64,000 bases of DNA from Escherichia coli (lineage in GTDB: Bacteria > Pseudomonadota > Gammaproteobacteria > Enterobacterales > Enterobacteriaceae): the NCBI RefSeq assembly GCF_009931435.1, contig NZ_CP043414.1; one strand, 5' to 3'. The position numbers and the translations under genes were made by a program. The notes under the pieces were generated by a model. It had not been told where the DNA came from and did no database searches. It saw only the letters and a program-made list of their open reading frames with translations. Of this stretch, positions 3,002 through 58,459 are shown piece by piece (within the stretch, counting starts at the first letter, position 1; the number at the start of each line of letters is the position of its first letter).

Positions 3002-5239
3002 GTGGACTGGCTTCTTGATGTTTTTGCAACCTGGCTATATGGCTTAAAAGTAATCGCGATAACGTTAGCGGTCATCATGTTCATCAGCGGGCTGGACGAT
3101 TTTTTTATTGATGTCGTCTACTGGGTACGCCGCATTAAACGCAAGTTGAGTGTTTATCGCCGCTACCCGCGAATGAGTTACCGCGAACTGTATAAACCAG
3201 ATGAAAAACCGTTAGCGATTATGGTTCCGGCGTGGAATGAAACGGGCGTCATCGGCAATATGGCCGAGCTGGCGGCGACCACGCTCGACTATGAAAACTA
3301 TCATATCTTTGTTGGCACCTACCCCAACGACCCCGATACTCAGCGTGATGTTGACGAAGTGTGCGCTCGCTTCCCAAACGTGCATAAGGTAGTCTGCGCT
3401 CGTCCTGGCCCCACCAGCAAAGCCGACTGCCTGAACAACGTGCTGGACGCCATCACCCAGTTTGAGCGTAGCGCCAATTTCGCTTTTGCTGGTTTTATTC
3501 TGCATGACGCCGAAGACGTAATTTCACCGATGGAATTGCGTCTGTTCAACTATCTGGTCGAGCGTAAAGATCTGATTCAGATCCCGGTATACCCATTCGA
3601 ACGCGAATGGACGCACTTCACCAGCATGACTTACATTGATGAGTTTTCAGAACTGCATGGCAAAGATGTTCCGGTGCGTGAAGCCCTCGCCGGACAGGTG
3701 CCCAGCGCAGGCGTCGGTACTTGTTTCAGCCGCCGCGCCGTGACCGCACTGTTAGCTGACGGTGACGGTATTGCTTTCGACGTGCAGAGTCTTACTGAAG
3801 ATTACGACATTGGTTTCCGCCTGAAAGAAAAAGGTATGACGGAAATTTTTGTCCGTTTTCCGGTGGTGGACGAAGCCAAAGAACGCGAGCAGCGTAAATT
3901 TTTACAGCACGCGCGGACGTCAAACATGATCTGCGTGCGCGAATATTTCCCCGATACCTTTTCGACGGCGGTTCGACAAAAGTCTCGCTGGATCATCGGC
4001 ATTGTTTTCCAGGGCTTTAAAACCCATAAATGGACCTCCAGCCTGACACTCAACTACTTTCTCTGGCGCGACCGCAAAGGGGCAATCAGTAACTTTGTCA
4101 GCTTCCTCGCGATGCTGGTGATGATCCAGCTTTTGCTGTTACTGGCGTATGAAAGTTTGTGGCCCGATGCCTGGCATTTCCTTTCTATTTTCAGCGGCAG
4201 CACATGGTTAATGACCCTGCTGTGGCTAAACTTTGGTTTGATGGTTAACCGCATCGTGCAGCGGGTGATTTTTGTCACTGGCTACTACGGTCTGACGCAG
4301 GGGCTGCTATCTGTCCTGCGTCTTTTCTGGGGCAACCTGATTAACTTCATGGCCAACTGGCGCGCGTTAAAACAGGTGCTTCAACACGGCGATCCACGTC
4401 GCGTCGCGTGGGATAAAACAACGCATGACTTCCCCAGCGTCACTGGCGATACCCGCTCGTTGCGCCCGTTAGGTCAAATTCTGCTGGAAAATCAGGTCAT
4501 CACTGAAGAACAACTCGATACGGCACTGCGTAATCGTGTCGAAGGTCTACGCCTGGGCGGTTCAATGCTGATGCAGGGGCTGATTAGCGCCGAACAGCTG
4601 GCACAGGCACTGGCAGAGCAAAACGGCGTGGCGTGGGAGTCCATCGATGCCTGGCAGATCCCTTCTTCGCTGATTGCCGCGATGCCGGCCTCCGTGGCGC
4701 TGCATTATGCGGTGCTACCGCTGCGTCTGGAAAATGATGAGTTAATTGTCGGCAGTGAAGATGGTATTGACCCGGTTTCGCTGGCAGCCCTGACGCGTAA
4801 AGTTGGACGCAAAGTGCGTTACGTCATTGTTCTGCGAGGACAAATTGTCACCGGATTACGTCACTGGTATGCACGTCGACGCGGTCACGATCCACGGGCA
4901 ATGTTGTACAATGCGGTTCAGCATCAGTGGCTCACGGAACAACAGGCCGGTGAAATCTGGCGGCAATATGTGCCGCATCAGTTCCTGTTCGCCGAAATAC
5001 TGACCACGCTCGGTCATATTAATCGTTCAGCAATTAACGTGTTGTTATTGCGCCATGAACGCAGTTCTCTGCCGCTCGGCAAGTTTTTGGTCACCGAAGG
5101 CGTTATCAGCCAGGAAACGTTGGATCGCGTCCTGACAATTCAGCGCGAATTACAAGTTTCGATGCAATCACTATTACTCAAAGCAGGTTTAAACACAGAA
5201 CAGGTTGCGCAACTGGAGTCCGAAAATGAAGGAGAATAA
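3002..5239 (+). CDS. nfrB: Phage N4 adsorption protein B (inner membrane glycosyltransferase family)
   Basis: ORF track 745 aa, alternative (GTG) start; recognised as NfrB; K-12 gene order. Confidence 0.88.
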   Translation: MDWLLDVFATWLYGLKVIAITLAVIMFISGLDDFFIDVVYWVRRIKRKLSVYRRYPRMSYRELYKPDEKPLAIMVPAWNETGVIGNMAELAATTLDYENYHIFVGTYPNDPDTQRDVDEVCARFPNVHKVVCARPGPTSKADCLNNVLDAITQFERSANFAFAGFILHDAEDVISPMELRLFNYLVERKDLIQIPVYPFEREWTHFTSMTYIDEFSELHGKDVPVREALAGQVPSAGVGTCFSRRAVTALLADGDGIAFDVQSLTEDYDIGFRLKEKGMTEIFVRFPVVDEAKEREQRKFLQHARTSNMICVREYFPDTFSTAVRQKSRWIIGIVFQGFKTHKWTSSLTLNYFLWRDRKGAISNFVSFLAMLVMIQLLLLLAYESLWPDAWHFLSIFSGSTWLMTLLWLNFGLMVNRIVQRVIFVTGYYGLTQGLLSVLRLFWGNLINFMANWRALKQVLQHGDPRRVAWDKTTHDFPSVTGDTRSLRPLGQILLENQVITEEQLDTALRNRVEGLRLGGSMLMQGLISAEQLAQALAEQNGVAWESIDAWQIPSSLIAAMPASVALHYAVLPLRLENDELIVGSEDGIDPVSLAALTRKVGRKVRYVIVLRGQIVTGLRHWYARRRGHDPRAMLYNAVQHQWLTEQQAGEIWRQYVPHQFLFAEILTTLGHINRSAINVLLLRHERSSLPLGKFLVTEGVISQETLDRVLTIQRELQVSMQSLLLKAGLNTEQVAQLESENEGE

Positions 5240-9271: not shown

Positions 9272-10033
9272 ATGCAATTGAGCAGCAGTGAACCTTGCGT
9301 GGTGATCCTGACCGAAAAAGAGGTAGAGGTAAGCGTCAATAACCATGCCACGTTTACCCTTCCGAAAAATTACCTGGCCGCCTTCGCGTGCAACAATAAC
9401 GTCATTGAACTCTCAACGTTAAATCACGTATTAATCACCCACATCAACCGTAACATCATCAACGATTATCTGTTGTTTTTAAATAAGAACTTAACCTGTG
9501 TAAAGCCCTGGTCGCGGCTGGCTACCCCGGTTATCGCTTGTCATAGCCGTACACCGGAAGTGTTCCGGCTAGCCGCCAACCACAGCAAGCAGCAACCCAG
9601 CAAACCCTGCGAAGCGGAGTTGACGCGCGCATTGCTTTTTACCGTATTGTCTAACTTTCTTGAGCAATCGCGGTTTATTGCCCTACTGATGTATATCTTA
9701 CGCAGCAGCGTCCGCGACAGCGTCTGCCGCATTATTCAAAGCGATATTCAGCATTACTGGAATCTGCGAATTGTCGCCAGTTCGCTCTGTTTAAGCCCCA
9801 GCCTGCTCAAAAAGAAATTAAAAAACGAAAATACCAGCTATAGCCAGATTGTCACAGAGTGTCGTATGCGTTACGCCGTACAGATGTTATTGATGGATAA
9901 CAAAAATATCACTCAGGTGGCACAATTGTGTGGGTATAGCAGCACGTCGTACTTTATCTCTGTTTTTAAGGCGTTTTACGGCCTGACACCGTTGAATTAT
10001 CTCGCCAAACAGCGACAAAAAGTGATGTGGTGA
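9272..10033 (+). CDS. envY: AraC-family porin thermoregulator EnvY
   Basis: ORF track 253 aa; C-terminal AraC-type HTH; K-12 position next to ompT. Confidence 0.8.
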   Translation: MQLSSSEPCVVILTEKEVEVSVNNHATFTLPKNYLAAFACNNNVIELSTLNHVLITHINRNIINDYLLFLNKNLTCVKPWSRLATPVIACHSRTPEVFRLAANHSKQQPSKPCEAELTRALLFTVLSNFLEQSRFIALLMYILRSSVRDSVCRIIQSDIQHYWNLRIVASSLCLSPSLLKKKLKNENTSYSQIVTECRMRYAVQMLLMDNKNITQVAQLCGYSSTSYFISVFKAFYGLTPLNYLAKQRQKVMW

Positions 10034-12499: not shown

Positions 12500-13119
12500 C
12501 TTGCACCTATCATAAAATTAAAACAAGTTGATAGTAGTCAAATAACAACCAATTAAATACACAATCATAATCAGGATGATGTGCATTTATATTTTTATAC
12601 ACAAAATTATAGTTTGCAAATTTTAATAAATTTCATTTAAGATTAAATTATTATATGTATGTTGTTTTTTATTCTAACTTATTTCAAAGTTACATTTTTC
12701 AACGCTTACTATGCTTTTTATTAACATAAACTCACTACAACGCACCTGAAACCTCTTGCTATATATATGTCAACCGTTTGAATTTAAAATAAAAAGAGTA
12801 TCATTTTTACTTGCATTTCTTATCAAGTCACATTCAACAACAGTAAAAAAACATTATTAGAACCATTCAATTAACAAAAAACCAACATCCAGCTTGCTTA
12901 ATTTTTCTTTATTAAACGATATTGAAAATCAATTGATAAAATACATCTAAACAACCTTTTGGGGCGCAAAAGCATAACATCAAACAAACAAATAACACAC
13001 CGAAAAAACTCACAATTAATAACCTATGATATACATACTGTTTATTATGGTTGAATAAGCCACTCGATATCTGGTGCTACGGAAGTGTCCACACGGTTTA
13101 GCAGCACCCGATACTTTTT

Positions 13120-41140: not shown

Positions 41141-41564
41141 CTGTGTGACGAAGTAACCACTCTTAACAGCATAACCAATTTTTTACGTACGTAAACCACT
41201 AAATGATATTTGAGAGAATGCTACCGAGTATTGAAAACACCACTACAAATACATAAGCAAATCTCAACAAATAACCAAAAAATAATTTCCAGTGTTATTT
41301 TTAGCCGGTTTAAATTGAACCTTCAAATTATAGAACACTTATAAATAACAGCCGTTAATATAAATTGGCTAATAGATTTATTTTTATTCAGCCAAGAGCC
41401 ATGAATAGGATTCGATAGAAAAAAGTTCAGATAAAAATAGAGATCTACTTCACAAATCAAACGAGAAACCAAAACTTACATCTTGAAATAATCACATTGA
41501 TTAGATGAATATTTATCGCGCAGTGACATCATTTTTTAATAATAGTTCAAAAAAAGGGCTCACG

Positions 41565-42662
41565 ATGAAAAAATTAACAGTGGCAATTTCTGCTGTAGCT
41601 GCATCAGTACTGATGGCGATGTCTGCTCAGGCAGCTGAAATTTATAATAAAGACAGTAACAAGCTGGATCTGTACGGGAAAGTTAATGCTAAGCACTACT
41701 TCTCCTCTAATGATGCAGATGATGGTGATACTACTTATGCCCGTCTTGGCTTCAAAGGTGAAACCCAAATCAACGATCAACTGACTGGTTTCGGTCAGTG
41801 GGAATATGAATTCAAAGGCAACCGCGCTGAATCTCAAGGTTCCTCCAAAGATAAAACCCGTCTTGCCTTCGCTGGCCTGAAATTCGGTGACTACGGCTCC
41901 ATCGATTACGGCCGTAACTACGGTGTAGCATACGACATCGGTGCGTGGACTGACGTCCTGCCAGAATTCGGTGGTGACACTTGGACTCAAACCGACGTGT
42001 TCATGACTCAACGTGCAACTGGTGTTGCAACCTATCGTAACAACGACTTCTTTGGTCTGGTTGATGGTCTGAACTTTGCTGCTCAGTACCAAGGCAAAAA
42101 CGATCGTAGCGATTTCGATAACTACACTGAAGGTAACGGTGATGGCTTCGGTTTCTCTGCTACCTATGAATACGAAGGATTCGGTATCGGTGCAACTTAT
42201 GCGAAATCTGATCGTACCGACACTCAAGTTAATGCAGGGAAAGTTCTTCCTGAAGTATTTGCTTCCGGTAAAAATGCAGAAGTTTGGGCCGCAGGTCTGA
42301 AATATGACGCTAACAACATTTACCTGGCCACTACCTATTCTGAAACCCAGAATATGACTGTATTTGCTGATCACTTCGTTGCTAATAAAGCCCAAAACTT
42401 CGAAGCTGTTGCACAATATCAGTTCGATTTCGGTCTGCGTCCGTCCGTTGCTTACCTGCAATCTAAAGGTAAGGATCTTGGAGTATGGGGCGATCAGGAC
42501 TTAGTCAAATATGTTGATGTAGGTGCAACCTATTACTTCAACAAAAATATGTCTACTTTCGTTGATTACAAAATCAACCTGCTTGACAAAAATGACTTCA
42601 CTAAAGCACTCGGTGTAAGCACTGATGACATCGTTGCTGTAGGTCTGGTTTACCAGTTCTAA
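41565..42662 (+). CDS. nmpC: Outer membrane porin NmpC (OmpC/OmpD family), intact
   Basis: ORF track 41505..42662; start at MKKLTVAIS with signal peptide; C-terminal Phe; no IS interruption. Confidence 0.9.
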
Positions 42663-42851
42663 TCTGATTACGAAAAAGATATGTTGCGGGAGGCGTTGCC
42701 TCCCCAACATATAAGTGGCTCCCTCAAGCCACTTCCTTTAGAAGCACAACCTTGCTTCTAACTATATAAACCTTCTGTTATATATTACCCTTTATTTTTG
42801 GGGGCGTCTCAACGCCCCATTTTTAATAATTTTTAGTAAACAATTGGCATA

Positions 42852-43235
42852 TTAATTAGAGTTATTAACAACGATATCCATCTCTAACCGGATATCTAAT
42901 GCCATTAACATCCCTTCAATTATGCCCTCAGCCTTCTGTAACCTTTTCCCGATATAACCATCAGAGCAGCAATGCTTACCTGCCAGTGACATGAATGTCA
43001 TACCGACTACATAATAATCTACTAATAAATCGTGCAAATCGCTGTTGTTCTTTTTCAGACGGGCCATGCACCCGCAAATGATCATCGCGTCATCGTCACA
43101 ACATTGCGGGCGAGATTTTACTTTTGAAGTAATTAATCCCTTAAAACCGGCGGCAATGGACGACCAGGTCACATCTTCATGATTATTAGCCGCCCACGCT
43201 CCCCAACGCTCAAGAACCATCTGAATATCACGCAT
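42852..43235 (-). CDS. quuD: Late gene antiterminator Q (QuuD-like)
   Basis: ORF track 42852..43250; internal Met gives 127 aa; Cys-rich zinc-binding region. Confidence 0.82.
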
Positions 43236-43820: not shown

Positions 43821-44146
43821 GCCTTAATAACCCCCTCTTTCAGCCAGATAACCTGTGTTCTCGCCATACCTTCCAGCGCGCATTCTTTTGCATATCCAGC
43901 GTCAACAAAATGCGTGCGGCGGTCGATTTCGTCGTGGCAGGCAGAACATGCAATGGTGGCAATCAGGTCTGGCGGTTTCGTACCGGTGCCGCACAATCCA
44001 GTCAGCCGGATATGTGCCAGTACAGACGTTTCAGGGTTGCCATTACATACGCCAGGGATTCTTACCTGGCATTCCCGACCACGCGCTGCTTTTCTCAAAT
44101 CAGCCATGACTCCTCCTTGCTGCCAGTCGCAACCATTTTTTATCAA
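43817..44146 (-). CDS. ybcO: Cys-rich nin-region protein (YbcO-like)
   Basis: ORF track 109 aa; position between ninE and rusA. Confidence 0.65.
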
Positions 44147-44270
44147 CCAAGCTGGCGGTATATCCGAGCAGTGTTGGTATTTCGGATGGCTTCAGCTCAG
44201 GTTTACGCTTACGACGATTTGGTACTCTGTAGATGTGTCCGTTCATGACACGAATAAGCGGTGTAGCCAT
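44100..44270 (-). CDS. ninE: NinE-like protein
   Basis: ORF track 44100..44333; internal Met chosen (56 aa), start overlapping the ybcN stop. Confidence 0.6.
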   Translation of the reverse strand: MATPLIRVMNGHIYRVPNRRKRKPELKPSEIPTLLGYTASLVDKKWLRLAARRSHG

Positions 44271-44725
44271 TACGCCTCCTGCTTGTCGCGCAGCAGCTGG
44301 AACTCGCAGCTCTGTGGAATAGTCAGGTGGCAACCAATATTCATCGCCCAGGCTTCAACCTTACACAGGAAGACATACATCTCTCCGGTATCAAGATCGG
44401 AGGTATGGCGTAACGACTGGATAGTGGTGATATCACCGGTTACGACATCAACCAGGTCTTTGGTTTCATAACCGAGATATGTGTGTTTGAGAGCATCTTT
44501 TACCCAAGCTGGAGTGGCGAACGTTTTACCCCTGCTGATGAGGTATTCACTGATTTCGCTGTACCACATGTGGCTGAGTGCATTCTGGGAAAGACTGCGT
44601 TTCTCACGCCACGGTTTAAGCACCATGCGAAAGCATTTGCCCTCCTCCAGATAAGGCTGGATCTGCCGACCGATAGCGGTGAAGTTGCCGCGATGTAATT
44701 TGATGCCGTCTTGTGAGAGGTTCAC
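44270..44725 (-). CDS. ybcN: nin-region protein YbcN
   Basis: ORF track 151 aa; K-12 DLP12 gene order. Confidence 0.75.
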
Positions 44726-44939
44726 GCTTCCCCTCCGCAGAGGTCAAACGCTAGATGCAAAGAATTGCAGGTGCATTTCTGCATCTGTGAAGGGAGAAGA
44801 GAGTTTGGATTGTATGTGCGCATAAACGTCCCCGTTTAGCGCAGAAGTCACCGGAGTTGTTCAGGCTCCGGTGACATAATTATGCCGTGTTGATTTCCCA
44901 AAATCAAAATCGATAGAATTGCTCCTTCTTAAAACACTT

Positions 44940-45737
44940 TTACTCTCTGGAAGCTTTTCTTATCTCTCTTGGTGTTATATTAAAACGATTATGAAATCTT
45001 TCAGTAAAACGAGAAGGACACTTATAACCATTTTCTCTGGCAATCTCGCTTATAGGTTTTACCGTCGTTTGTATAGCAGACAACGCATTATTTAACCTCA
45101 CATCGTCCAGTATACTTTGGAAACTTACCCCCTCGCTTGCTAGACGGCGATGTAATGTAGAAACAGAAATGTAGAGATATCGAGCAACCTTGTTTGCTGT
45201 CCATTTTGTGCCGGGTTCGGATAGCAGCAGGTTATAACAACGACTTATCAATGATTGTTTACTATATGATAAAAGTAAATGATTAACATGATTCACTCCT
45301 AACGAAAGTAGAACGCCCATTGCTAAGTGCTCCTGAATTTTAGTTGAGAAGCCTCGGGAAACAGATGTTTTTAGTTGCTCCCAACAATATATTAACTCAG
45401 GATTCTGAGGTAAAAAGAAACTTGTTTTGTTACGTATTTGATCAGTTACCGTATAAAGTTTTTGGAAACTCTCAATTAAATCAATGGGTAAGTAAAGCAT
45501 TTCTGCAAGATAAAGCCCTGCTTCAGGATAATTCTCAATATAAAATTCATAACCACAAGGAAATAATATTATTTGATTATTATCAACAGTTAAAGTATGC
45601 GTCTCCCAATTGATAACTTTCTTTCCCTGACGGATACGACACAAAGCTGGCATAAGAGGCTTAACCCTATGAATCTCATGATGTTTATGCATCCGTATTT
45701 CTTCGATCTTTAAGTTAGTCTTACCTCTTGCCAGCAT
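44940..45737 (-). CDS. ybcM: AraC-family transcriptional regulator YbcM
   Basis: ORF track 265 aa; C-terminal AraC HTH; low GC. Confidence 0.78.
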
Positions 45738-45746
45738 ACTCTCACC

Positions 45747-46298
45747 CTACTTTATCTCATAAACTGGTGTTATCTCAGCGGTTGCGATTTTATTAGCATT
45801 AAGCATATAACCAACTAACGCTCCGCTGGAGTTAGAATCTACAGGAATCTTTTCAGTTTTTAGAGCCCATACTTTAAACTGGTAATGATGTGGTTTATCT
45901 CCTTTAGGAGGACATGCGCCACCAAACCCAGCATAGCCAAAATCATTTCGGCCTTGAACAGCACCAGTCGGCAGTTTTGTTCCATCACGTCTCCCTGCAT
46001 CAACGGGCAAATATGTTACTGTTGCTGGAATATTAACAACAGTCCAATGCCACCAACCACTGCCTGTAGGTGCATCTGGATCATATACAGTTACGGCAAA
46101 GCTTTTGGTACCTTCAGGAACACCAGACCAGGTTAATGAGGGCGATGTATTACCACCTTCACACCCAAATCCAGAAAAGACATGAGACGTTGTAAGTTGC
46201 TCTCCTGTTTTTATTTCATTACTAGTGACCTGAAATGCTGCAGCCTGCGCAGAAAATGTTATGAATGCCAATACAGTTGAAACGATAAGTGTTTTCAT
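45747..46298 (-). CDS. ybcL: Periplasmic PEBP-family protein YbcL
   Basis: ORF track 183 aa; signal peptide; recognised YbcL sequence. Confidence 0.82.
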   Translation of the reverse strand: MKTLIVSTVLAFITFSAQAAAFQVTSNEIKTGEQLTTSHVFSGFGCEGGNTSPSLTWSGVPEGTKSFAVTVYDPDAPTGSGWWHWTVVNIPATVTYLPVDAGRRDGTKLPTGAVQGRNDFGYAGFGGACPPKGDKPHHYQFKVWALKTEKIPVDSNSSGALVGYMLNANKIATAEITPVYEIK

Positions 46299-46762
46299 AA
46301 AAACCTCTTTGTTATGACCTATCGTTATTTTATTTGATATTCCTTTATCTCATTATGCATAAAGGCGCAATGTTCATGCAAAAGCAATCACAATTGTACC
46401 CCCAACCCAATTATTTGCCACAATATACACAAAGCACATTGATACTATCTAAAAACTCTGCTTTATTATTAGTAACACCTACGAAAGTCGGTGTTATTTT
46501 TTAACCTACCATTCAAAATACGTGACATACACCATTTTGCTCATAATAATTTGTCACGTATTTTCAGTATTTGAATCTGCGACCAAGAGTTCTCACCTAA
46601 CAAATGATTAAGATTGTATAGCTCATTTACTACCCCAATACAGCCGTACAAAACTCGCTTGTGGGAGCAAACAAAGTAATTACCCATTAAGTTTCGTCAA
46701 AGATAATTAATTCTGTCTTGCACTTTATCACCATAGCATAACTTAAAATCCGAGATCATTAT

Positions 46763-48289
46763 TTAGAAATAAATCTCACCATCAACCATATATTTGAGAG
46801 CACTTATCGCCTGCTGGGCGGATATTACTTTCATTAAAGGATAGTGTTTAAAAACAATGCCATTCATAAAATAGATATCACAGGTTTTATTATCCGTATT
46901 AATTATGATTTTTTCGAATGTTTTATAGGCAAGTGTACGGCATAACTCTCGTCCATTTTTACTGGTTAAGTCAATAGCATAAAAATCACTGAATGAATTT
47001 ACACCTTTACTCTTCAAAGTTTTCAATGATACCGAAGCCCTTCGTAATTCCTTATCTAATAGTCTTATTTTCTCTGCTATAGCGGTAACTTCAGGCGCGA
47101 CAGACAATGCAACGATTAAATTATTAATTTTCATCTGAAGCTCAATAATTTTTAACTCTAAAGTTTCATTAGCATCTTTCTTGTTTTCAACTGGTTGAAT
47201 TTTGCTACAATTAAAAAGCAATTCATTAATGATATTATAATCAACCAAATCTCTTTTTATTGATGGCCTGTCACATCGATGTAATCTTCTCATCGGACAA
47301 ACATAATAGCCATGCAAACTTCCAGATACCGCATGAACAATCATGGTATTACCACAAGCCTCACACTTCATAACTGTTCGAAGTAGATTTATTAGCATAG
47401 GATTCTTGCTACTATTGCTAATACCAAAAGGTGCCAACCGAATTTCCTGTACAGCGTAAAACAAATCATCTGATATGACTCTGGGATAATAGCCAGCGAT
47501 TTCACTTATCCCTTTCCCTCTTGCACGATATGAAGGTACGCAAATACCTATCAGAGCTTTATTCGCTAATAATTTTTCAATTACAGAAGGTCCCCATGCA
47601 CTTTCTTTTCCTGAGAAATTCTTTACAGCATGATCATTTAAATACTTGGCTATTGCATTCAATGAGCGCCTTTCCATCCTGAGTTTAAAAATTAGCTCAA
47701 TAGTTTTCACCCTGTCTGGGTCTGGAACAAAAGCCGTTCTTTTGTCATCTAAGGAGAGCCATCTCGGATAAGACGCCGTCATAATCGTACCTGATTCCAG
47801 TGCATCCTGCCGTTTTTTCTTCCATGATAATTTAACCCGACTTGACTTTATCTCGCTTTCTTCATTTGCCCTTTGTGCTATAAGTATGGCTTTTATTAAT
47901 GAATATGGCTCATTCAAAGAGTCAATATTATAGACTGTATTGTCGCAAAGAGTTATAACATCAATACCGTGATTCAAAATCAATTTCAGACGTTCAATCG
48001 CTTCACCGACTTTTTCTCTTGAAAGTCTGTCCAGACTTTCAACTAACAATGTAGTTCCTGGCAATATATAACCATGCTCTATAGCATCTAAAAATTCCGA
48101 AAAAGCTCCTGATTGTGCATGCTTTCCTTTGAATGCACTTAATCCTAAATCTTCATATGTTATGGTATCAAGATAATAATCACTATTTACCTTTAACCAT
48201 TCAGCAATAAGTCTTCTCTGTCGGTTTAATGAGTCGCCAGACATCTGACCTGGTGATGAAAATCGCATATATGCTATGGCTTTTTTCAT
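46763..48289 (-). CDS. ybcK: Large serine recombinase (YbcK-like)
   Basis: ORF track 508 aa; N-terminal resolvase catalytic motif (YMRFSS), Cys-rich zinc ribbon, C-terminal coiled coil. Confidence 0.82.
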   Translation of the reverse strand: MKKAIAYMRFSSPGQMSGDSLNRQRRLIAEWLKVNSDYYLDTITYEDLGLSAFKGKHAQSGAFSEFLDAIEHGYILPGTTLLVESLDRLSREKVGEAIERLKLILNHGIDVITLCDNTVYNIDSLNEPYSLIKAILIAQRANEESEIKSSRVKLSWKKKRQDALESGTIMTASYPRWLSLDDKRTAFVPDPDRVKTIELIFKLRMERRSLNAIAKYLNDHAVKNFSGKESAWGPSVIEKLLANKALIGICVPSYRARGKGISEIAGYYPRVISDDLFYAVQEIRLAPFGISNSSKNPMLINLLRTVMKCEACGNTMIVHAVSGSLHGYYVCPMRRLHRCDRPSIKRDLVDYNIINELLFNCSKIQPVENKKDANETLELKIIELQMKINNLIVALSVAPEVTAIAEKIRLLDKELRRASVSLKTLKSKGVNSFSDFYAIDLTSKNGRELCRTLAYKTFEKIIINTDNKTCDIYFMNGIVFKHYPLMKVISAQQAISALKYMVDGEIYF

Positions 48290-48543
48290 GGTGACACCTG
48301 CTAACGTATGCTTTTATAAACCTTAGTGGTGGGATATAATTTTTGTTTATTTTTTATTTAAAAAGACAATTAAGGTCACATTATCTTGAATATACAACAA
48401 TAATCGTATTGCAATTTTCTTACGCCATAATCTTGAAAGCACAAAAGAATACATAAAAAATAAAGACATTAACAAAAAGCATAAAACGAGGCTCATATAA
48501 ATATAAGAGCCTCCATATTTTAGTCGTTTAGAAACAAATTATT

Positions 48544-48876
48544 TTAATGTGGTGTGCTTCGTGACAATAAATTAATAATCAACACACCGGCACAAATCAA
48601 CATCATGCCTATAATGGCTGGCAGGTCCAGCCGTTGGCCGAAAAATCCCCATGACAGTAAGCTAATCAGGACAATACCGACTCCTGACCAGATAGCATAA
48701 GCAATCCCTGTAGGAATATAAGCCAGCGTCTGAGCTAATAACCAGAATGATGCACAATAACAAATAATTGTACCAACAGATGGCCATAACCGTGTAAAAC
48801 CTTCTGAAAACTTCATTAAGGTTGTACCAATGACCTCTGCAAGTATTGCACCACCAAGATAAATATAAGGGTTCAT
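48544..48876 (-). CDS. emrE: SMR-family multidrug efflux transporter EmrE
   Basis: ORF track 48544..48930; start at MNPYIYLGG gives 110 aa; four TM segments. Confidence 0.9.
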   Translation of the reverse strand: MNPYIYLGGAILAEVIGTTLMKFSEGFTRLWPSVGTIICYCASFWLLAQTLAYIPTGIAYAIWSGVGIVLISLLSWGFFGQRLDLPAIIGMMLICAGVLIINLLSRSTPH

Positions 48877-48943
48877 AGCATATTCTTTCCTGTTCAAACT
48901 GGAGAGAATTGTACTACAGTTTGAACTCAACTCACCTGTTTCA

Positions 48944-49246
48944 TCATTGTGTTCCCATTGATGTTCTTTTATATACCCTCAATACCCGTTTCATCGCGGC
49001 ACTCTGGCGACACTCCTTAAAAATCAGATTCGTGCTCACCTTTCCTTCCCATTCTTCTCTGGTAGCGAACCGGTAATACACCGTTCGCCAGACCTTACCA
49101 TCAACGACCAGGATTCCTGCCCGCGCCATTTTAGCCGCAGCCTGATTTATGCTGGTTACGGTTGCGCCTGTTACCGCGGCAACGTCCTGTGCACAGAAGC
49201 TCTTATGCGTCCCCAGGTAATGAATAATTGCCTCTTTGCCCGTCAT
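48944..49246 (-). CDS. ren: Ren-like protein
   Basis: ORF track 100 aa; immediately downstream of P as in lambda. Confidence 0.7.
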   Translation of the reverse strand: MTGKEAIIHYLGTHKSFCAQDVAAVTGATVTSINQAAAKMARAGILVVDGKVWRTVYYRFATREEWEGKVSTNLIFKECRQSAAMKRVLRVYKRTSMGTQ

Positions 49247-49944
49247 ACACTTGCTCCTTTCAGTCCGAACTTAGCTTTAATTTCTGCGATCTTCGCCAGA
49301 GCCTGTGCACGATTTAGAGGTCTACCGCCCATAACAGGAAGTTGTTTTACTGGTTCAGGTATCGTCTCACCACGGTTAATTCGCGCTGTCATACAGGTCA
49401 GTTCATCGGCAGCCTTGCGCCGTAATTCCGCGTCAGCCAGCGCATTGGCCCGCATGTTCTGGTACAAGTTGGTAACCAACCAGTAATGCGCGTTCGATTT
49501 CCACGGATAAGACTCTGCATCCGGATACAGGCCACGCTTCCGGCAATACTCGTAAACCATATCAACCAGCTCGCTGACGTTTGGCAGCCCGGCGTTAACA
49601 GATGCTTCTTCCCGGCACCAGGCGACAAACTGCCCGGGTGATGGCAGGAATGGTCGATTCTGCCGACGGGCTACGCGCATTCCAGCGTTAACCTGTTCCA
49701 TTGTGGTGATCCCGTTTTCCCGGAAAGCCAGAACCCACTGGCGGCGGATTTCGTTCAGTTCATTCTGGTCACGGTTAGCCAGGCTAGCCGGGAAAGTTGC
49801 CAGTAACTGGCTGAACACACCGTTGATGATCTGCGCTACCTGCTGTACCTGCGGCTTTTCGTCGTACTGTTCCGGCATATTGTTGGCGATCCGGCGCATC
49901 TGCTCACGGTCAAAGTTAACCATCTGTGCGGCGATGTTTTTCAT
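49243..49944 (-). CDS. P: Replication protein P (DnaB helicase loader)
   Basis: ORF track 233 aa, lambda gpP length. Confidence 0.9.
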   Translation of the reverse strand: MKNIAAQMVNFDREQMRRIANNMPEQYDEKPQVQQVAQIINGVFSQLLATFPASLANRDQNELNEIRRQWVLAFRENGITTMEQVNAGMRVARRQNRPFLPSPGQFVAWCREEASVNAGLPNVSELVDMVYEYCRKRGLYPDAESYPWKSNAHYWLVTNLYQNMRANALADAELRRKAADELTCMTARINRGETIPEPVKQLPVMGGRPLNRAQALAKIAEIKAKFGLKGASV

Positions 49945-50960
49945 AAATCCACCCCGTAAATCCAGTCAGTGTTCGTCAGGTCGAGTTTTGGTTTGCCGGC
50001 TGTCACGCCAGCCTGTTGCTTGTTTCGGTTGATTTCGAGCTGGGTCCACTTGTCGCGGAGTTTGGCCGGACTCAGCACGTTACCGGACCAGAAGTTGTCC
50101 TGGCATGCCCAGCGGAACAGCACGCACATGTCGCGGTGGTTACGTCCGTCACGTTCACGCATCAGGCGGATATCGTTAGCCCACCCTGCAAAATTCGGTT
50201 TTCTGGCTGATGGCGCGATGGTCTTCACCATGTCAAACATCCACTCTGCGGCGGTCAGGTCTTCTGCTGTCCCCCACTTGCTGCCACTCTGAATTGCAGC
50301 ATCCGGTTTCACCACAGGAAGGTCGTTTTCTGGCTGGTCAGAGGATTCGCCAGAATTCTCGGACGAAAAAGGTTTTATATTGTCTTTTGTTAGTTTGTCT
50401 TTTGTGTTTACCTGATTCGGGTAAACGCCTTTACCTGATTTGGGTAAACTTTTCTTACCTGATTCAGGTAAATTTACCTCTTTCAGGTAAACTTTATTTT
50501 TCTTACCTGATTCGGGTAATGTTGACCATTCACTGACCACATTATTAATGCCGATATTTCGCCCGCTCTGAATAAGAATCCCACGCTTTACCAGAACGCT
50601 TTTTGCAGCAGAACACTTGTGCGGCAATATCCCGGTCAATTCGGAAAGTTGCTCGTTGCTCACCCAATCCAGTCTTTTATTAAAGCCATATGTTTTGCGC
50701 ATGACAGCCAGGAAGACCAGAAGCTGGTGCTGTGTTAATCCGGCCAGCATCACAGCTTCCAGCAACTCATTTGCAATGCGCGTATAACCATCATCGAGAT
50801 CTGCCACGCGCGGCTCCTTTTGTGCCGCATCCGGCACTGGAAAATTGAATATCTCAGCAGTGTTTGCCATAATTCCTCCCGCAATGAGTGTGTTACGATT
50901 TGCACCTGAAAGTCGGTTCTGTTCCCGCAGACCGACTTTCGCCATTTCTGAACCTATCAT
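49941..50960 (-). CDS. O: Replication initiator O (lambda-like C-terminal half; non-lambda N-terminal half and iterons)
   Basis: ORF track 339 aa; contains ori iterons and AT-rich segment; start overlaps upstream stop (ATGA). Confidence 0.85.
   Translation of the reverse strand: MIGSEMAKVGLREQNRLSGANRNTLIAGGIMANTAEIFNFPVPDAAQKEPRVADLDDGYTRIANELLEAVMLAGLTQHQLLVFLAVMRKTYGFNKRLDWVSNEQLSELTGILPHKCSAAKSVLVKRGILIQSGRNIGINNVVSEWSTLPESGKKNKVYLKEVNLPESGKKSLPKSGKGVYPNQVNTKDKLTKDNIKPFSSENSGESSDQPENDLPVVKPDAAIQSGSKWGTAEDLTAAEWMFDMVKTIAPSARKPNFAGWANDIRLMRERDGRNHRDMCVLFRWACQDNFWSGNVLSPAKLRDKWTQLEINRNKQQAGVTAGKPKLDLTNTDWIYGVDL
50405..50525. repeat. Phage replication origin: about five iterons of the form TACCTGATTCGGGTAAAC inside the O gene
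   Basis: Direct repeats each with internal dyad TACC..GGTA, read on the + strand; adjacent AT-rich stretch. Confidence 0.7.
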
Positions 50961-57005: not shown

Positions 57006-57348
57006 GGCCTGTCAGTTTCTTAAGATATCCAGACCAACCGCCACCAACTGGATACGAACAGGCCGCCTACAGGCAACACGTAAAGATCCAACCAAGCCAA
57101 AATCTCCTTACCTCACAACACGGCAAGCCTGCATTGCGGCGCTTCAGTCTCCGCTGCATACTGTCCAGGTGAGCGCGGGTGATGGCATAACAGAGGAAAG
57201 AAAATGTCACTCTTCCGCAGAAATGAAATATGGTATGCCTCGTATTCGCTCCCGGGCGGGAAACGAATTAAGGAATCTCTTGGCACAAAGGACAAGCGGC
57301 AAGCTCAGGAGTTGCACGACAAGCGAAAAGCAGAACTCTGGCGAGTAG
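56977..57348 (+). CDS. xis: Putative excisionase (HTH, AlpA/Xis-like N-terminus); 3' end uncertain, overlaps int
   Basis: ORF track 56947..57348; internal Met MESYSL..; N-terminal HTH; position upstream of int. Confidence 0.5.
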
Positions 57349-58367
57349 AAAAGCTAGGGGATTTACCTGATGTCACTTTTGAAGAGGCCTGCCTAAGATG
57401 GCTTGAGGAAAAAGCTGATAAAAAATCTCTCGATTCAGATAAAAGCCGGATTGAGTTCTGGCTTGAACATTTTGAGGGTATAAGGCTTAAAGATATCTCG
57501 GAGGCAAAGATTTACTCTGCTGTAAGCAGAATGCATAACAGAAAGACGAAAGAAATATGGAAACAGAAAGTTCAGGCCGCCATCAGGAAAGGTAAAGAAC
57601 TGCCTGTTTATGAACCAAAGCCAGTATCAACTCAGACAAAGGCAAAGCATCTTGCCATGATAAAGGCCATTCTCCGTGCTGCAGAACGCGACTGGAAGTG
57701 GCTGGAAAAAGCGCCTGTCATCAAGATACCAGCGGTCAGAAACAAGCGAGTCAGATGGCTGGAAAAGGAGGAAGCAAAACGCCTTATTGATGAGTGCCCC
57801 GAACCACTGAAATCTGTCGTCAAGTTTGCGCTGGCAACTGGTCTGAGAAAGTCGAACATCATAAATCTGGAATGGCAACAAATCGACATGCAGCGACGAG
57901 TTGCCTGGGTGAATCCAGAAGAGAGCAAATCAAACCGCGCCATTGGTGTGGCGCTGAACGATACCGCCTGTAAAGTGTTGCGTGATCAAATAGGCAAGCA
58001 TCACAAATGGGTGTTTGTACATACCAAGGCGGCTAAGCGAGCAGATGGAACATCAACGCCTGCGGTCAGGAAGATGCGCATCGACAGCAAGACATCATGG
58101 CTATCAGCTTGTCGTCGTGCAGGAATTGAAGATTTCCGTTTCCATGACCTCAGACACACCTGGGCAAGCTGGCTGATTCAGTCAGGCGTCCCATTATCAG
58201 TGCTTCAGGAAATGGGCGGATGGGAGTCCATAGAAATGGTTCGTAGGTATGCTCACCTTGCGCCTAATCATTTGACAGAGCATGCGAGGAAAATAGACGA
58301 CATTTTTGGTGATAATGTCCCAAATATGTCCCACTCTGAAATTATGGAGGATATAAAGAAGGCGTAA
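57204..58367 (+). CDS. intD: Tyrosine integrase (DLP12 IntD-like)
   Basis: ORF track 387 aa; C-terminal catalytic domain; adjacent to tRNA-Arg. Confidence 0.9.
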
Positions 58368-58382
58368 CTGATTGAATTGTAA

Positions 58383-58459
58383 TGGCGCGCCCTGCAGGAT
58401 TCGAACCTGCGGCCCACGACTTAGAAGGTCGTTGCTCTATCCAACTGAGCTAAGGGCGC
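58383..58459 (-). tRNA. argU: tRNA-Arg (anticodon UCU, argU)
   Basis: 77-nt sequence with CCA end matching argU by recall; its 3' 45 nt is the prophage attachment repeat. Confidence 0.88.

Follow-up and report, generated by a model that had tools for sequence, protein, structure and literature searches.

The annotated emrE–ybcK–ybcL–ybcM cargo cluster of a DLP12-type Escherichia coli prophage and its apparently functional large serine recombinase YbcK

The closest described counterpart of the region is the DLP12 prophage of E. coli K-12 with the genes emrE, ylcJ, ybcK, ybcL, ybcM, ylcH and ybcN. In the window, i.e. the whole stretch of 64,000 nucleotides that was analyzed, these genes are found in the same order and orientation; the ybcK copies of the window and of K-12 share 99.9% identity, and a 5.1-kb query is 100% identical in K-12 derivatives. 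In the BW25113 record the query match is split by an annotated IS3 element, whereas ren of the window is uninterrupted. The IS3 insertion presumably lies in ren, and the replication region is presumably missing from the K-12 prophage. The region is the already annotated emrE–ybcK–ybcL–ybcM accessory cluster of a DLP12-type, lambda-like E. coli prophage and is ordinary phage cargo. As it is textbook-annotated DLP12 content, no novelty is claimed for the cluster itself.

Like other lambdoid morons (bor and lom of lambda, the nmpC porin gene of DLP12), the cluster is AT-rich, lies between conserved modules, acts on the host and outlasts prophage decay, but it differs by holding a recombinase gene, which is atypical for a host-acting moron. 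The recombinase YbcK resembles the large serine integrases of phages (phiC31, Bxb1, A118/LI, TP901-1) in its domain order, catalytic residues, zinc ribbon with coiled coil and fold. However, it is very divergent from them (13–20% identity in structural alignments, no sequence or profile match in the PDB), and it is encoded inside a prophage that also has a tyrosine Int/Xis, with no attP/attB or RDF identified. XisF, SpoIVCA, TnpX and CcrAB belong to the same superfamily, but YbcK is not associated with a repeat-bounded excisable element. Pin, Gin, Cin and Hin are prophage-borne serine recombinases as well, and relatives of ybcK elsewhere often follow tail-fibre genes. These proteins comprise about 190 aa with a C-terminal HTH, in contrast to the 508 aa of YbcK with its recombinase and zinc-ribbon domains, and ybcK has neither a flanking inverted repeat nor an oppositely oriented tail-fibre segment nor an inversion polymorphism. 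The features of the region are as follows:

44270..44725, minus strand: ybcN, gene at the NinB position; conserved left flank of the slot, not cargo
44722..44823, minus strand: ylcH, 33-codon ORF overlapping the ybcN start; conserved beside every cassette variant
44847..44907, no strand: boundary element, hairpin and palindrome, conserved in the comparison of cassette variants
44940..45737, minus strand: ybcM, AraC-family transcription regulator (Pfam HTH_18, 61.5 bits against a cut-off of 33.6, residues 185–261)
45747..46298, minus strand: ybcL, periplasmic PEBP/Raf-kinase-inhibitor-like protein (Pfam PBP, NCBIfam), K-12-type allele with Val at precursor residue 99 (PMC4810123)
46299..46453, no strand: region upstream of ybcL, which travels with ybcL-ybcM and is also present in a ybcK-less island beside fliE
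46454..46721, no strand: AT-rich spacer of 268 bp, confined to the full block of the K-12 type (one copy in each of 674 genomes)
46763..48289, minus strand: ybcK, 508-aa large serine recombinase (Pfam Resolvase, Recombinase and Zn_ribbon_recom)
48347..48496, minus strand: ylcJ, gene of a 49-aa small protein between emrE and ybcK
48488..48513, minus strand: terminator-like hairpin 3′ of emrE (GAGGCTC, 12-nt loop, GAGCCTC, then a U-rich tract)
48544..48876, minus strand: emrE, SMR multidrug/quaternary-cation efflux pump (Pfam Multi_Drug_Res)
48944..49246, minus strand: ren, conserved right flank of the cargo slot; annotated as ren in relatives

The four cargo ORFs and their minus-strand orientation, as given in an earlier note on this sequence, match the coordinates of the ORF list exactly, and the accessory status of the block between the replication and nin modules was upheld. 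The lower G + C content noted there was confirmed as well, with 36.3% in the block against 48.8% in the left and 50.8% in the right flank (ybcN 50.4%; ren 50.2%, P 53.4%), and the AT-rich gap between ybcL and ybcK, estimated at 460 bp, measures 464 bp with 33% G + C. Two small genes, ylcJ and ylcH, had been missed. YlcJ is identical to a validated K-12 small protein (PMC6001520), and its start codon belongs to the 3′ arm of the terminator-like hairpin behind emrE. This hairpin was omitted by a simple terminator scan because its loop is longer than 8 nt; a consensus scan of the AT-rich block for promoters and terminators yielded nothing better than shuffled sequence. The 268-bp spacer contains a perfect 13-bp inverted repeat with 24-nt spacing (46515–46564), a plus-strand terminator-like hairpin (46475–46503) and a 48-codon ORF of doubtful reality. 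The Rfam scan of the block gave no match at E ≤ 1, and the four block proteins had no match to the PADLOC anti-phage defence models at E ≤ 0.01.

A replacement of lambda ninB-ninD by the block had also been proposed, and here the description needs correction: in lambda, 73 bp separate ren from the next gene, ninB, and no gene is replaced. Since ybcN occupies the NinB position, the block is an insertion between ren and the ninB equivalent. The Pfam NinB match of ybcN is weak (E 1.9e-4, below cut-off); in phage Perceval, the gene carries the annotation Orf/NinB homologue. At the position of ylcH, relatives with other cassettes carry a 102-nt hypothetical CDS. As extra DNA between conserved modules that is missing from close relatives and deviates in composition, the block agrees in these respects with a moron or lysogenic-conversion locus.

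The family assignments of the three cargo proteins other than YbcK are clear. EmrE belongs to the EmrE-type SMR family (NCBIfam NF042984, 239.7 bits, cut-off 226, residues 1–110 of 110) and YbcL to the YbcL-type kinase inhibitor family (NF007330, 400.3 bits, cut-off 277). YbcL further matches Pfam PBP with 144.5 bits and has a hydrophobic N-terminus ending in AQA, which reads as a signal sequence. YbcM contains the C-terminal HTH of the AraC/XylS family, with HTH_18 above cut-off, and reportedly represses motility genes and activates biofilm genes (PMC8249747, PMC9966839). Expression of emrE, ybcL and ybcM has been described in K-12 and UPEC (PMC4810123, PMC8249747).

The distribution of the block was determined in 5,426 complete E. 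coli genomes. In total, ybcK is present in 1,423 and the full block in 667–674 of them, whereas in 2,628 genomes a decayed prophage remnant next to fliE has emrE fused directly to ybcL-ybcM and lacks ybcK. This fli island matches window positions 44733–46453 and 48537–48952 and skips ybcK; phages of the O157 type match 46722–49400 and 44000–44909 and skip ybcLM. Judged by these sequence matches, the block is a composite in which emrE-ylcJ-ybcK and ybcL-ybcM with its own upstream region assort independently, so that the single block of the earlier note gives way to at least two modules within a mosaic hotspot. Within phages, emrE is always linked to ybcK (80 IMG/VR loci), and ybcK has a single genomic context in E. 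coli. It was lost by deletion in O104:H4 and in strain wlxctx60, and one nonsense allele was found. As some lineages have deleted it, the host does not need ybcK, and the prophage, too, can at least sometimes do without it. The block is not invariant among relatives; its invariance, combined with a dead recombinase, had been named as the finding that would speak against a cargo block.

The slot after ybcK begins 41 bp past its stop codon and holds at least four alternative, unrelated cassettes. Its left side is marked by the boundary element, which consists of a hairpin with a 10-bp stem (GTCACCGGAG...CTCCGGTGAC, 44847–44875) and the palindrome TTGATT-N6-AATCAA (44890–44907); homology among all cassette variants ends just past it, at 44907–44910. 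This arrangement could suggest that YbcK is an integron-like recombinase which captures or exchanges the cassettes directly downstream of its gene, and the remarkably constant left boundary at a palindrome as well as the partial direct repeats of the downstream gene that flank the cassettes in L018 and L187 would fit such a platform. However, the left breakpoint is common to all cassette types, including those of the phages L017 and L018, which lack ybcK. On the ybcK side, different pairs gave different breakpoints (positions 3501, 3720 and 3747 of L015), while one crossover site would yield one breakpoint. Furthermore, neither a repeat search nor a comparison of the flanks revealed an att-like motif repeated at both cassette ends, and the relatives of ybcK in other genera have no variable slot comparable to that of E. 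coli. An integron-like role of YbcK is for these reasons regarded as highly improbable. By eye, the conserved flanks on either side of the cassette (44878–44893 and 46727–46741) agree at about 12 of 16 positions; this symmetry is treated as a chance resemblance of AT-rich sequence and is not kept in other cassette variants.

YbcK has an N-terminal catalytic domain and a recombinase domain, then a four-Cys zinc ribbon with an inserted coiled coil, and ends in a small domain. Pfam Resolvase is matched with 69.1 bits (cut-off 23.3), and Recombinase and Zn_ribbon_recom are also above their cut-offs. The best NCBIfam match is XisF with 47.6 bits; as this is far under the cut-off of 375, YbcK is not an XisF equivalog. 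Sequence and profile searches of the PDB returned only a spurious RING2 match, and because nothing meaningful was obtained in this way a fold search was adopted. The AF2 model (pLDDT 79, long helices at 346–430) gave full-length Foldseek matches to serine integrase complexes (E 6e-19) at the low identity stated above.

Neither the 19 orthologues nor any of the 50 E. coli alleles deviates at R9, S11, Q15, D47, S51, D87, R88 or R91. Relatives with only 41–61% identity to the protein of the window retain all of these residues as well as E143, E144 and the zinc-ribbon residues C309, C312, C331 and C339. The active-site serine, whose absence the earlier note had named as a possible objection, is therefore present as Ser11 and does not vary. 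Among the E. coli copies of ybcK, 85 of 86 are intact, and pN/pS over the 50 alleles is 0.088. On the evidence of alignment and model, YbcK looks like a conserved, apparently functional large serine recombinase.

The gene might instead be a decaying integrase relic that is passively carried and has no current function. It has no known target, some lineages and the fli island have lost all or part of it, and in K-12 a Rho-dependent terminator was mapped upstream of ybcK, which is silenced there (PMC4150792). Decay is, however, hard to reconcile with the low pN/pS and the intact copies, with catalytic and zinc-ribbon residues that stay invariant at 41–61% identity, and with full-length orthologues of 505–522 aa across the Enterobacterales, and we consider a relic very unlikely. 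In the literature, ybcK is listed among 16 site-specific recombinases of K-12, with no target given (PMC5426353). In line with a silenced gene, its DNA was reported to be bound by Hfq/polyP (PMC10954037).

A search for traces of YbcK action near its gene followed the suggestion of the earlier note to look for target repeats. Its statement that no inverted-repeat substrate is visible locally holds: within 44000–50000 no inverted repeat exceeds 25 nt or a complementarity of about 80%, and only short pairs at chance level were found. The perfect 13-bp inverted repeat of the spacer was ruled out as a general YbcK site because the spacer is limited to the K-12-type block; in the window it has no further copies above chance. 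An IMG/VR scan with the family alignment retained 80 loci, all near-identical E. coli copies, which inform slot statistics and not distant contexts. The order P-ren-emrE-ybcK-cassette-ylcH-ybcN is held in all 80, and no inverted segment was detected among them, which speaks against a serine invertase. A chimeric query of ren and cassette sequence beyond ybcK, representing one cassette type, was matched in one piece in none of the 5,426 genomes, i.e. no precise empty site was found. Across the 80 loci and 5,426 genomes there is no sign that YbcK rearranges its own neighbourhood, and the suggested hunt brought no target to light.

In other genera, the cargo hotspots of prophages and plasmids harbour relatives of ybcK as single-gene units, frequently just after tail-fibre and tail-fibre-assembly genes. 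Some lie 0.5–3.3 kb from the point where the tail-gene end of a prophage meets host DNA, for instance at ssrA in Atlantibacter, at tRNA-Ser in Enterobacter and at argU in Cedecea. The units are compact, with a 5′ boundary 68–135 bp upstream of the start codon in differing contexts. Among 13 contexts, a shared upstream non-coding stretch was found between close relatives only (68 nt for L003 and L187, 120 nt for L103 and L187); there is no conserved downstream flank, and nothing is common with E. coli.

These compact units, at least two copies of which occur in Edaphovirga, could mean that the whole block, or emrE-ylcJ-ybcK alone, entered the phage as a discrete mobile element of the Tn4451/SCC type with its own serine recombinase. 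Such an origin would also fit the low G + C content, the sharp edges and the constant linkage of emrE to ybcK in phages. It is nevertheless a most improbable account: terminal repeats are absent, the genome search uncovered no precise empty site, the gene has its sole E. coli context here, and elsewhere the homology between contexts ends at the stop codon with emrE unlinked. More speculatively, the YbcK family might be a distinct clade of large serine recombinases of the Enterobacterales, a single-gene unit that enters cargo hotspots of plasmids and of prophages (in the latter at the tail-end junction or in the replication-nin gap) and, in trans, seeds or mobilizes adjacent cargo or backs up integration. 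This is rather unlikely; if true, the clade would be a recombinase-driven generator of phage cargo diversity instead of a conventional prophage integrase.

The host prophage is DLP12-type lambdoid and apparently intact. Over the first 20 kb of the isolated phage PhiR34_1, phage and window are colinear and 97–99% identical; the window carries cI, cro, a cII-like gene, O and P in addition to the uninterrupted ren. The tyrosine integrase gene intD (57204–58367) adjoins tRNA-Arg(TCT) at 58383–58459. In all 80 E. coli loci ybcK is internal, with phage DNA on both sides within 10 kb. YbcK is not the integrase of its own prophage; this role is filled by IntD at argU.

YbcK could still serve as a second, alternative integrase that recombines a phage attP with a secondary host attB when argU is occupied. 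The full-length fold similarity to phage serine integrases and the purifying selection on ybcK in viable phages are in line with this, as are the relatives near prophage-host junctions, a position that an integrase could occupy. On the other side stand the internal position in every E. coli locus and the tyrosine Int/Xis found in every annotated ybcK-bearing E. coli phage examined. Moreover, the attP sites of serine integrases normally adjoin the int gene (phiC31, Bxb1, A118). An alternative integrase is accordingly doubtful, though it deserves some consideration.

The reading that we prefer, with a probability of roughly 70%, is a composite moron cluster in the ren-ninB gap of an argU DLP12-type prophage, built by mosaic recombination, with YbcK as a competent recombinase that is not the integrase of the prophage and may act elsewhere. 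Ordinary lambdoid mosaic recombination would assemble the cluster at the hotspot, the left edge of which may be pinned by the conserved hairpin and palindrome upstream of ylcH-ybcN. The genes emrE, ybcL and ybcM would be host-acting conversion genes for an efflux pump, a periplasmic PEBP protein and an AraC regulator. They may be useful enough for about half of the E. coli genomes to retain them beside fliE, where the remnant would have shed the phage genes and ybcK.

In the same reading, ybcK would encode a catalytically competent recombinase of the integrase type that is kept by purifying selection in viable phages and does not act on its own neighbourhood. It would be silent in the lysogen due to the intrinsic and Rho-dependent terminators upstream. 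As its position and one terminator study in K-12 suggest, N-antiterminated read-through from pR during lytic growth or infection could lead to its expression. YbcK may then act in trans on att-type sites outside the block; this step is an argument by exclusion, since no target site, binding site or product has been identified.

For E. coli, the analysis shows two homes of emrE, ybcL and ybcM, namely viable lambdoid phages and a fixed remnant beside fliE, which matters for the reading of their roles in drug efflux, neutrophil suppression and motility/biofilm control as well as of their mobility. YbcK is an apparently active orphan recombinase of the integrase type without a known site. As its carrier phages can be grown in the laboratory, it offers a tractable case for asking why a second recombinase is kept by a phage that already has a tyrosine integrase, and it may provide a new orthogonal recombinase for engineering.

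ORF calling reproduced exactly the four minus-strand ORFs at 44940-48876 described in the earlier note, whose account of cargo genes, strand, coordinates and G + C content was correct; its gene list was incomplete, since the small genes ylcJ and ylcH had been overlooked. The feature itself is already known and ordinary.

Features in and around the block, and the integrase of the window prophage
44722-44823, ylcH, overlapping the start of ybcN
44940-48876 (block), minus strand, ybcM, 265 aa, AraC-type regulator (HTH_18)
44940-48876 (block), minus strand, ybcL, 183 aa, PEBP family
44940-48876 (block), minus strand, ybcK, 508 aa, Resolvase, Recombinase and Zn_ribbon_recom domains
48347-48496, ylcJ, between emrE and ybcK, product identical to the 49-aa protein validated in K-12 (PMC6001520)
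44940-48876 (block), minus strand, emrE, 110 aa, SMR family
57204-58367, tyrosine integrase, abutting tRNA-Arg(TCT)

The G + C content of the block (36.3%) is indeed lower than that of its flanks (48.8% and 50.8%), and the AT-rich gap between ybcL and ybcK comprises 464 bp with 33% G + C. As had been noted, no inverted-repeat recombination substrate for YbcK is present in the block. Neither an RNA family in the block (Rfam) nor a defence system among its proteins (PADLOC) was matched. A 268-bp spacer unique to the K-12-type block contains the stretch 46475-46564 (fold z-score -2.7) with a perfect 13-bp inverted repeat (AAAATACGTGACA / TGTCACGTATTTT, 24-nt spacing). A hairpin adjoining it, AACACC...GGTGTT with a T6 tract behind it, resembles a terminator on the plus strand and forms the end of a 56-codon ORF of that strand (46334-46504). 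Another perfect inverted repeat of 10 bp (GTTCAAACTG / CAGTTTGAAC, 15-nt spacing) is located at 48893-48927 in the 67-bp ren-emrE gap and could serve as terminator or as operator before emrE.

The window prophage is lambdoid, of the DLP12 type, and runs in reverse: cI, cro, a gene at the CII position, O, P and ren lie on the right-hand side of the block, and ybcN, ninE, ybcO, rusA, Q and a gene for an nmpC-like porin on the left-hand side. PhiR34_1, an isolated phage with the same full block, is colinear over its first 20 kb with the region 36896-58384 (97-99% identity). The porin gene, an intact nmpC-type gene at 41505-42662 downstream of the Q gene, is a further cargo gene of this prophage and is also retained in the fli island, a prophage remnant beside fliE; in K-12, nmpC is interrupted by IS5. 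In lambda, ren is followed by ninB at a distance of 73 bp, whereas in the window the block lies in between, and the ninB position is occupied by ybcN. For this reason, the block has to be regarded as an insertion between ren and the ninB equivalent, and not as a replacement of ninB-ninD as had been proposed.

The YbcK orthologues across the Enterobacterales are full-length (505-522 aa, 41-61% identity). In an alignment of 19 of them, the nucleophile Ser11, R9, Q15, D47, S51, D87, R88 and R91 are invariant, as are an AQRANEESE motif and four zinc-ribbon cysteines. An AlphaFold2 model (pLDDT 78.9) comprises catalytic, recombinase and small C-terminal domains as well as a long E-helix, a zinc ribbon and a coiled coil, and matches serine-integrase complexes (phiC31, Bxb1, LI and others) over the full length with E-values down to 6e-19. 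Sequence and profile searches of the PDB with YbcK gave no match. The gene is intact in 85 of 86 E. coli copies, and 50 distinct alleles show a pN/pS of 0.088, with 91 of 137 segregating sites at third codon positions. Thus, selection acts on ybcK, and its product, with the fold of an integrase, is apparently a live enzyme. The alternative of a dead recombinase in an unchanging block is contradicted in both parts, by the invariant catalytic residues, intact copies and low pN/pS on the one hand and by the variability of the block on the other. Independent inactivations of ybcK were found in three compared loci, L016 (O104:H4), L190 (strain wlxctx60) and L056: in one, loss of 1.1 kb has fused emrE with the 3' half of ybcK, in another a deletion joins codon ~50 of ybcK to ylcH, and the third is a nonsense allele at codon 31.

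A role as prophage integrase was rejected, since the window prophage and every annotated ybcK-bearing E. coli phage that was examined encode a tyrosine integrase. The order P-ren-emrE-ylcJ-ybcK-cassette-ylcH-ybcN was found in 80 of 80 IMG/VR loci, none of which contains an inverted segment, and none of 5,426 complete E. coli genomes gave an unbroken match to a chimeric empty-site query (ren joined to cassette sequence past ybcK). Due to the fixed position and the lack of inversions and empty sites, the 80 loci and 5,426 genomes give no comparative sign that YbcK excises, inverts or transposes its own surroundings. Judged from these comparisons, YbcK does not act locally and is not the prophage integrase.

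The cassette slot between ybcK and ylcH-ybcN is variable. O157-type and other phages keep ren-emrE-ylcJ-ybcK, and ybcL-ybcM is replaced by a 280-bp segment with a small ORF, by an alpha/beta-hydrolase gene, or by P22AR-domain and hypothetical genes. All cassette variants share the left end of homology at 44907-44910, just past two elements upstream of ylcH, a conserved hairpin with a 10-bp stem and the palindrome TTGATT-N6-AATCAA, and this endpoint is used even by phages without emrE and without ybcK. The ybcK-side breakpoints vary between compared pairs. Such breakpoints and boundaries are those of a hotspot for lambdoid mosaic recombination and not of a single site-specific crossover. In two loci, the cassettes have partial direct duplications of the downstream gene on both sides, which suggests that cassettes accrete by unequal or illegitimate recombination. 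In L187, ~200 bp of a DUF1367 gene are duplicated around ybcK-KGG-dinI (9652-9851 and 12633-12831), and in L018 the P22AR-HEPN genes lie between two copies of a 129-bp piece of the ylcH region (4375-4503 and 2056-2184). In both cases, what is duplicated is the 5' portion of the conserved gene that comes next, and the cassettes sit in the replication-nin gap.

Among the 5,426 complete E. coli genomes, ybcK was found in 1,423 and the full K-12-type block in 667-674, and in 2,628, about half, emrE is joined straight to the ybcL upstream region without ybcK. This ybcK-less form, the fli island, is located between yedK and fliE (L001 6286-10143; L189) and is colinear with window 41228-42950, 44733-46453 and 48537-48952, with only a 4-bp junction between emrE and the ybcL upstream region. 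Because of this colinearity, it is regarded as the decayed remains of a DLP12-like prophage from which ybcK and the genes from Q to ybcN have been lost. Only cargo is retained, namely the nmpC-like porin gene (or IS200/605 instead), ybcM, ybcL and emrE, so that three block genes were kept by the host after phage decay. The earlier cargo reading stands in outline, but not as a single block: the hotspot holds a composite cluster of cargo genes.

YbcK relatives in several genera are located close to the prophage end that bears the tail genes, at 0.5-3.3 kb from the junction with host DNA. The Atlantibacter relative (DHIB01000016) is located beside ssrA, that of Yersinia abuts a P2-like prophage, those of Erwinia and Ewingella lie at the tail-gene end near the host junction, the Enterobacter relative, with a KGG gene, is beside tRNA-Ser (E. 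ludwigii, CEFQ01000005), and that of Cedecea (NZ_JAERMU010000009) is 3.3 kb from argU. The relatives in a lambdoid prophage of Pantoea dispersa and in an Atlantibacter-like phage, the latter also carrying SIR2, KGG and DinI cargo, lie between the replication genes and Q, and some relatives occur alone on plasmids. Since homology between contexts is confined to the coding sequence and 68-135 bp upstream, the gene behaves in cargo hotspots as a compact unit of promoter and coding sequence. In two unrelated prophage contexts (L182 10001-12214, L187 10001-11814), the ybcK relative is followed by a small convergent gene for a KGG-domain (stress-protein-like) product, and in Enterobacter ludwigii the pair is directly beside tRNA-Ser(GGA). 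In Edaphovirga cremea, three contigs of one assembly (L113, L116, L118) break inside a ybcK relative; as two copies have unrelated DNA upstream of -135, this genome contains at least two, each in its own context.

EmrE is a characterised efflux pump, and this identity is backed by the family match. According to a meeting report (PMC9966839), YbcM represses motility genes and activates those for biofilms, and it is listed as a regulator of its own operon (PMC8249747); the fli-island copy of ybcM sits inside the flagellar region. YbcL of uropathogenic strains suppresses neutrophil migration, a single residue separating active and inactive alleles (PMC4810123). The window copy (45747-46298) and the fli-island copy (L001 9015-9566) differ in 7 of 183 residues, including precursor residue 99, which is Val in the former and Thr in the latter. 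This residue is probably the V78T position (mature numbering) by which the UPEC form, which suppresses neutrophils, differs from the non-suppressive form of K-12. In that case, the fli-island copy and not the phage copy would be the 'virulence' allele of ybcL.

For ybcK, a preceding Rho-dependent terminator (PMC4150792), binding of its DNA by Hfq/polyphosphate (PMC10954037) and a higher sabinene tolerance upon overexpression, for which no mechanism was offered (PMC7181518), were described. The gene would be silent in the lysogen, and antiterminated transcription from pR may continue past the hairpin of emrE and the Rho site, leading to ybcK expression. YbcK may act in trans, on sites outside the block. 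The analysis thereby narrows the YbcK question to an enzyme that, from conservation and modelling, is apparently alive, is not the prophage integrase and does not act locally, and it points out laboratory phages in which the question of its target can be tested.
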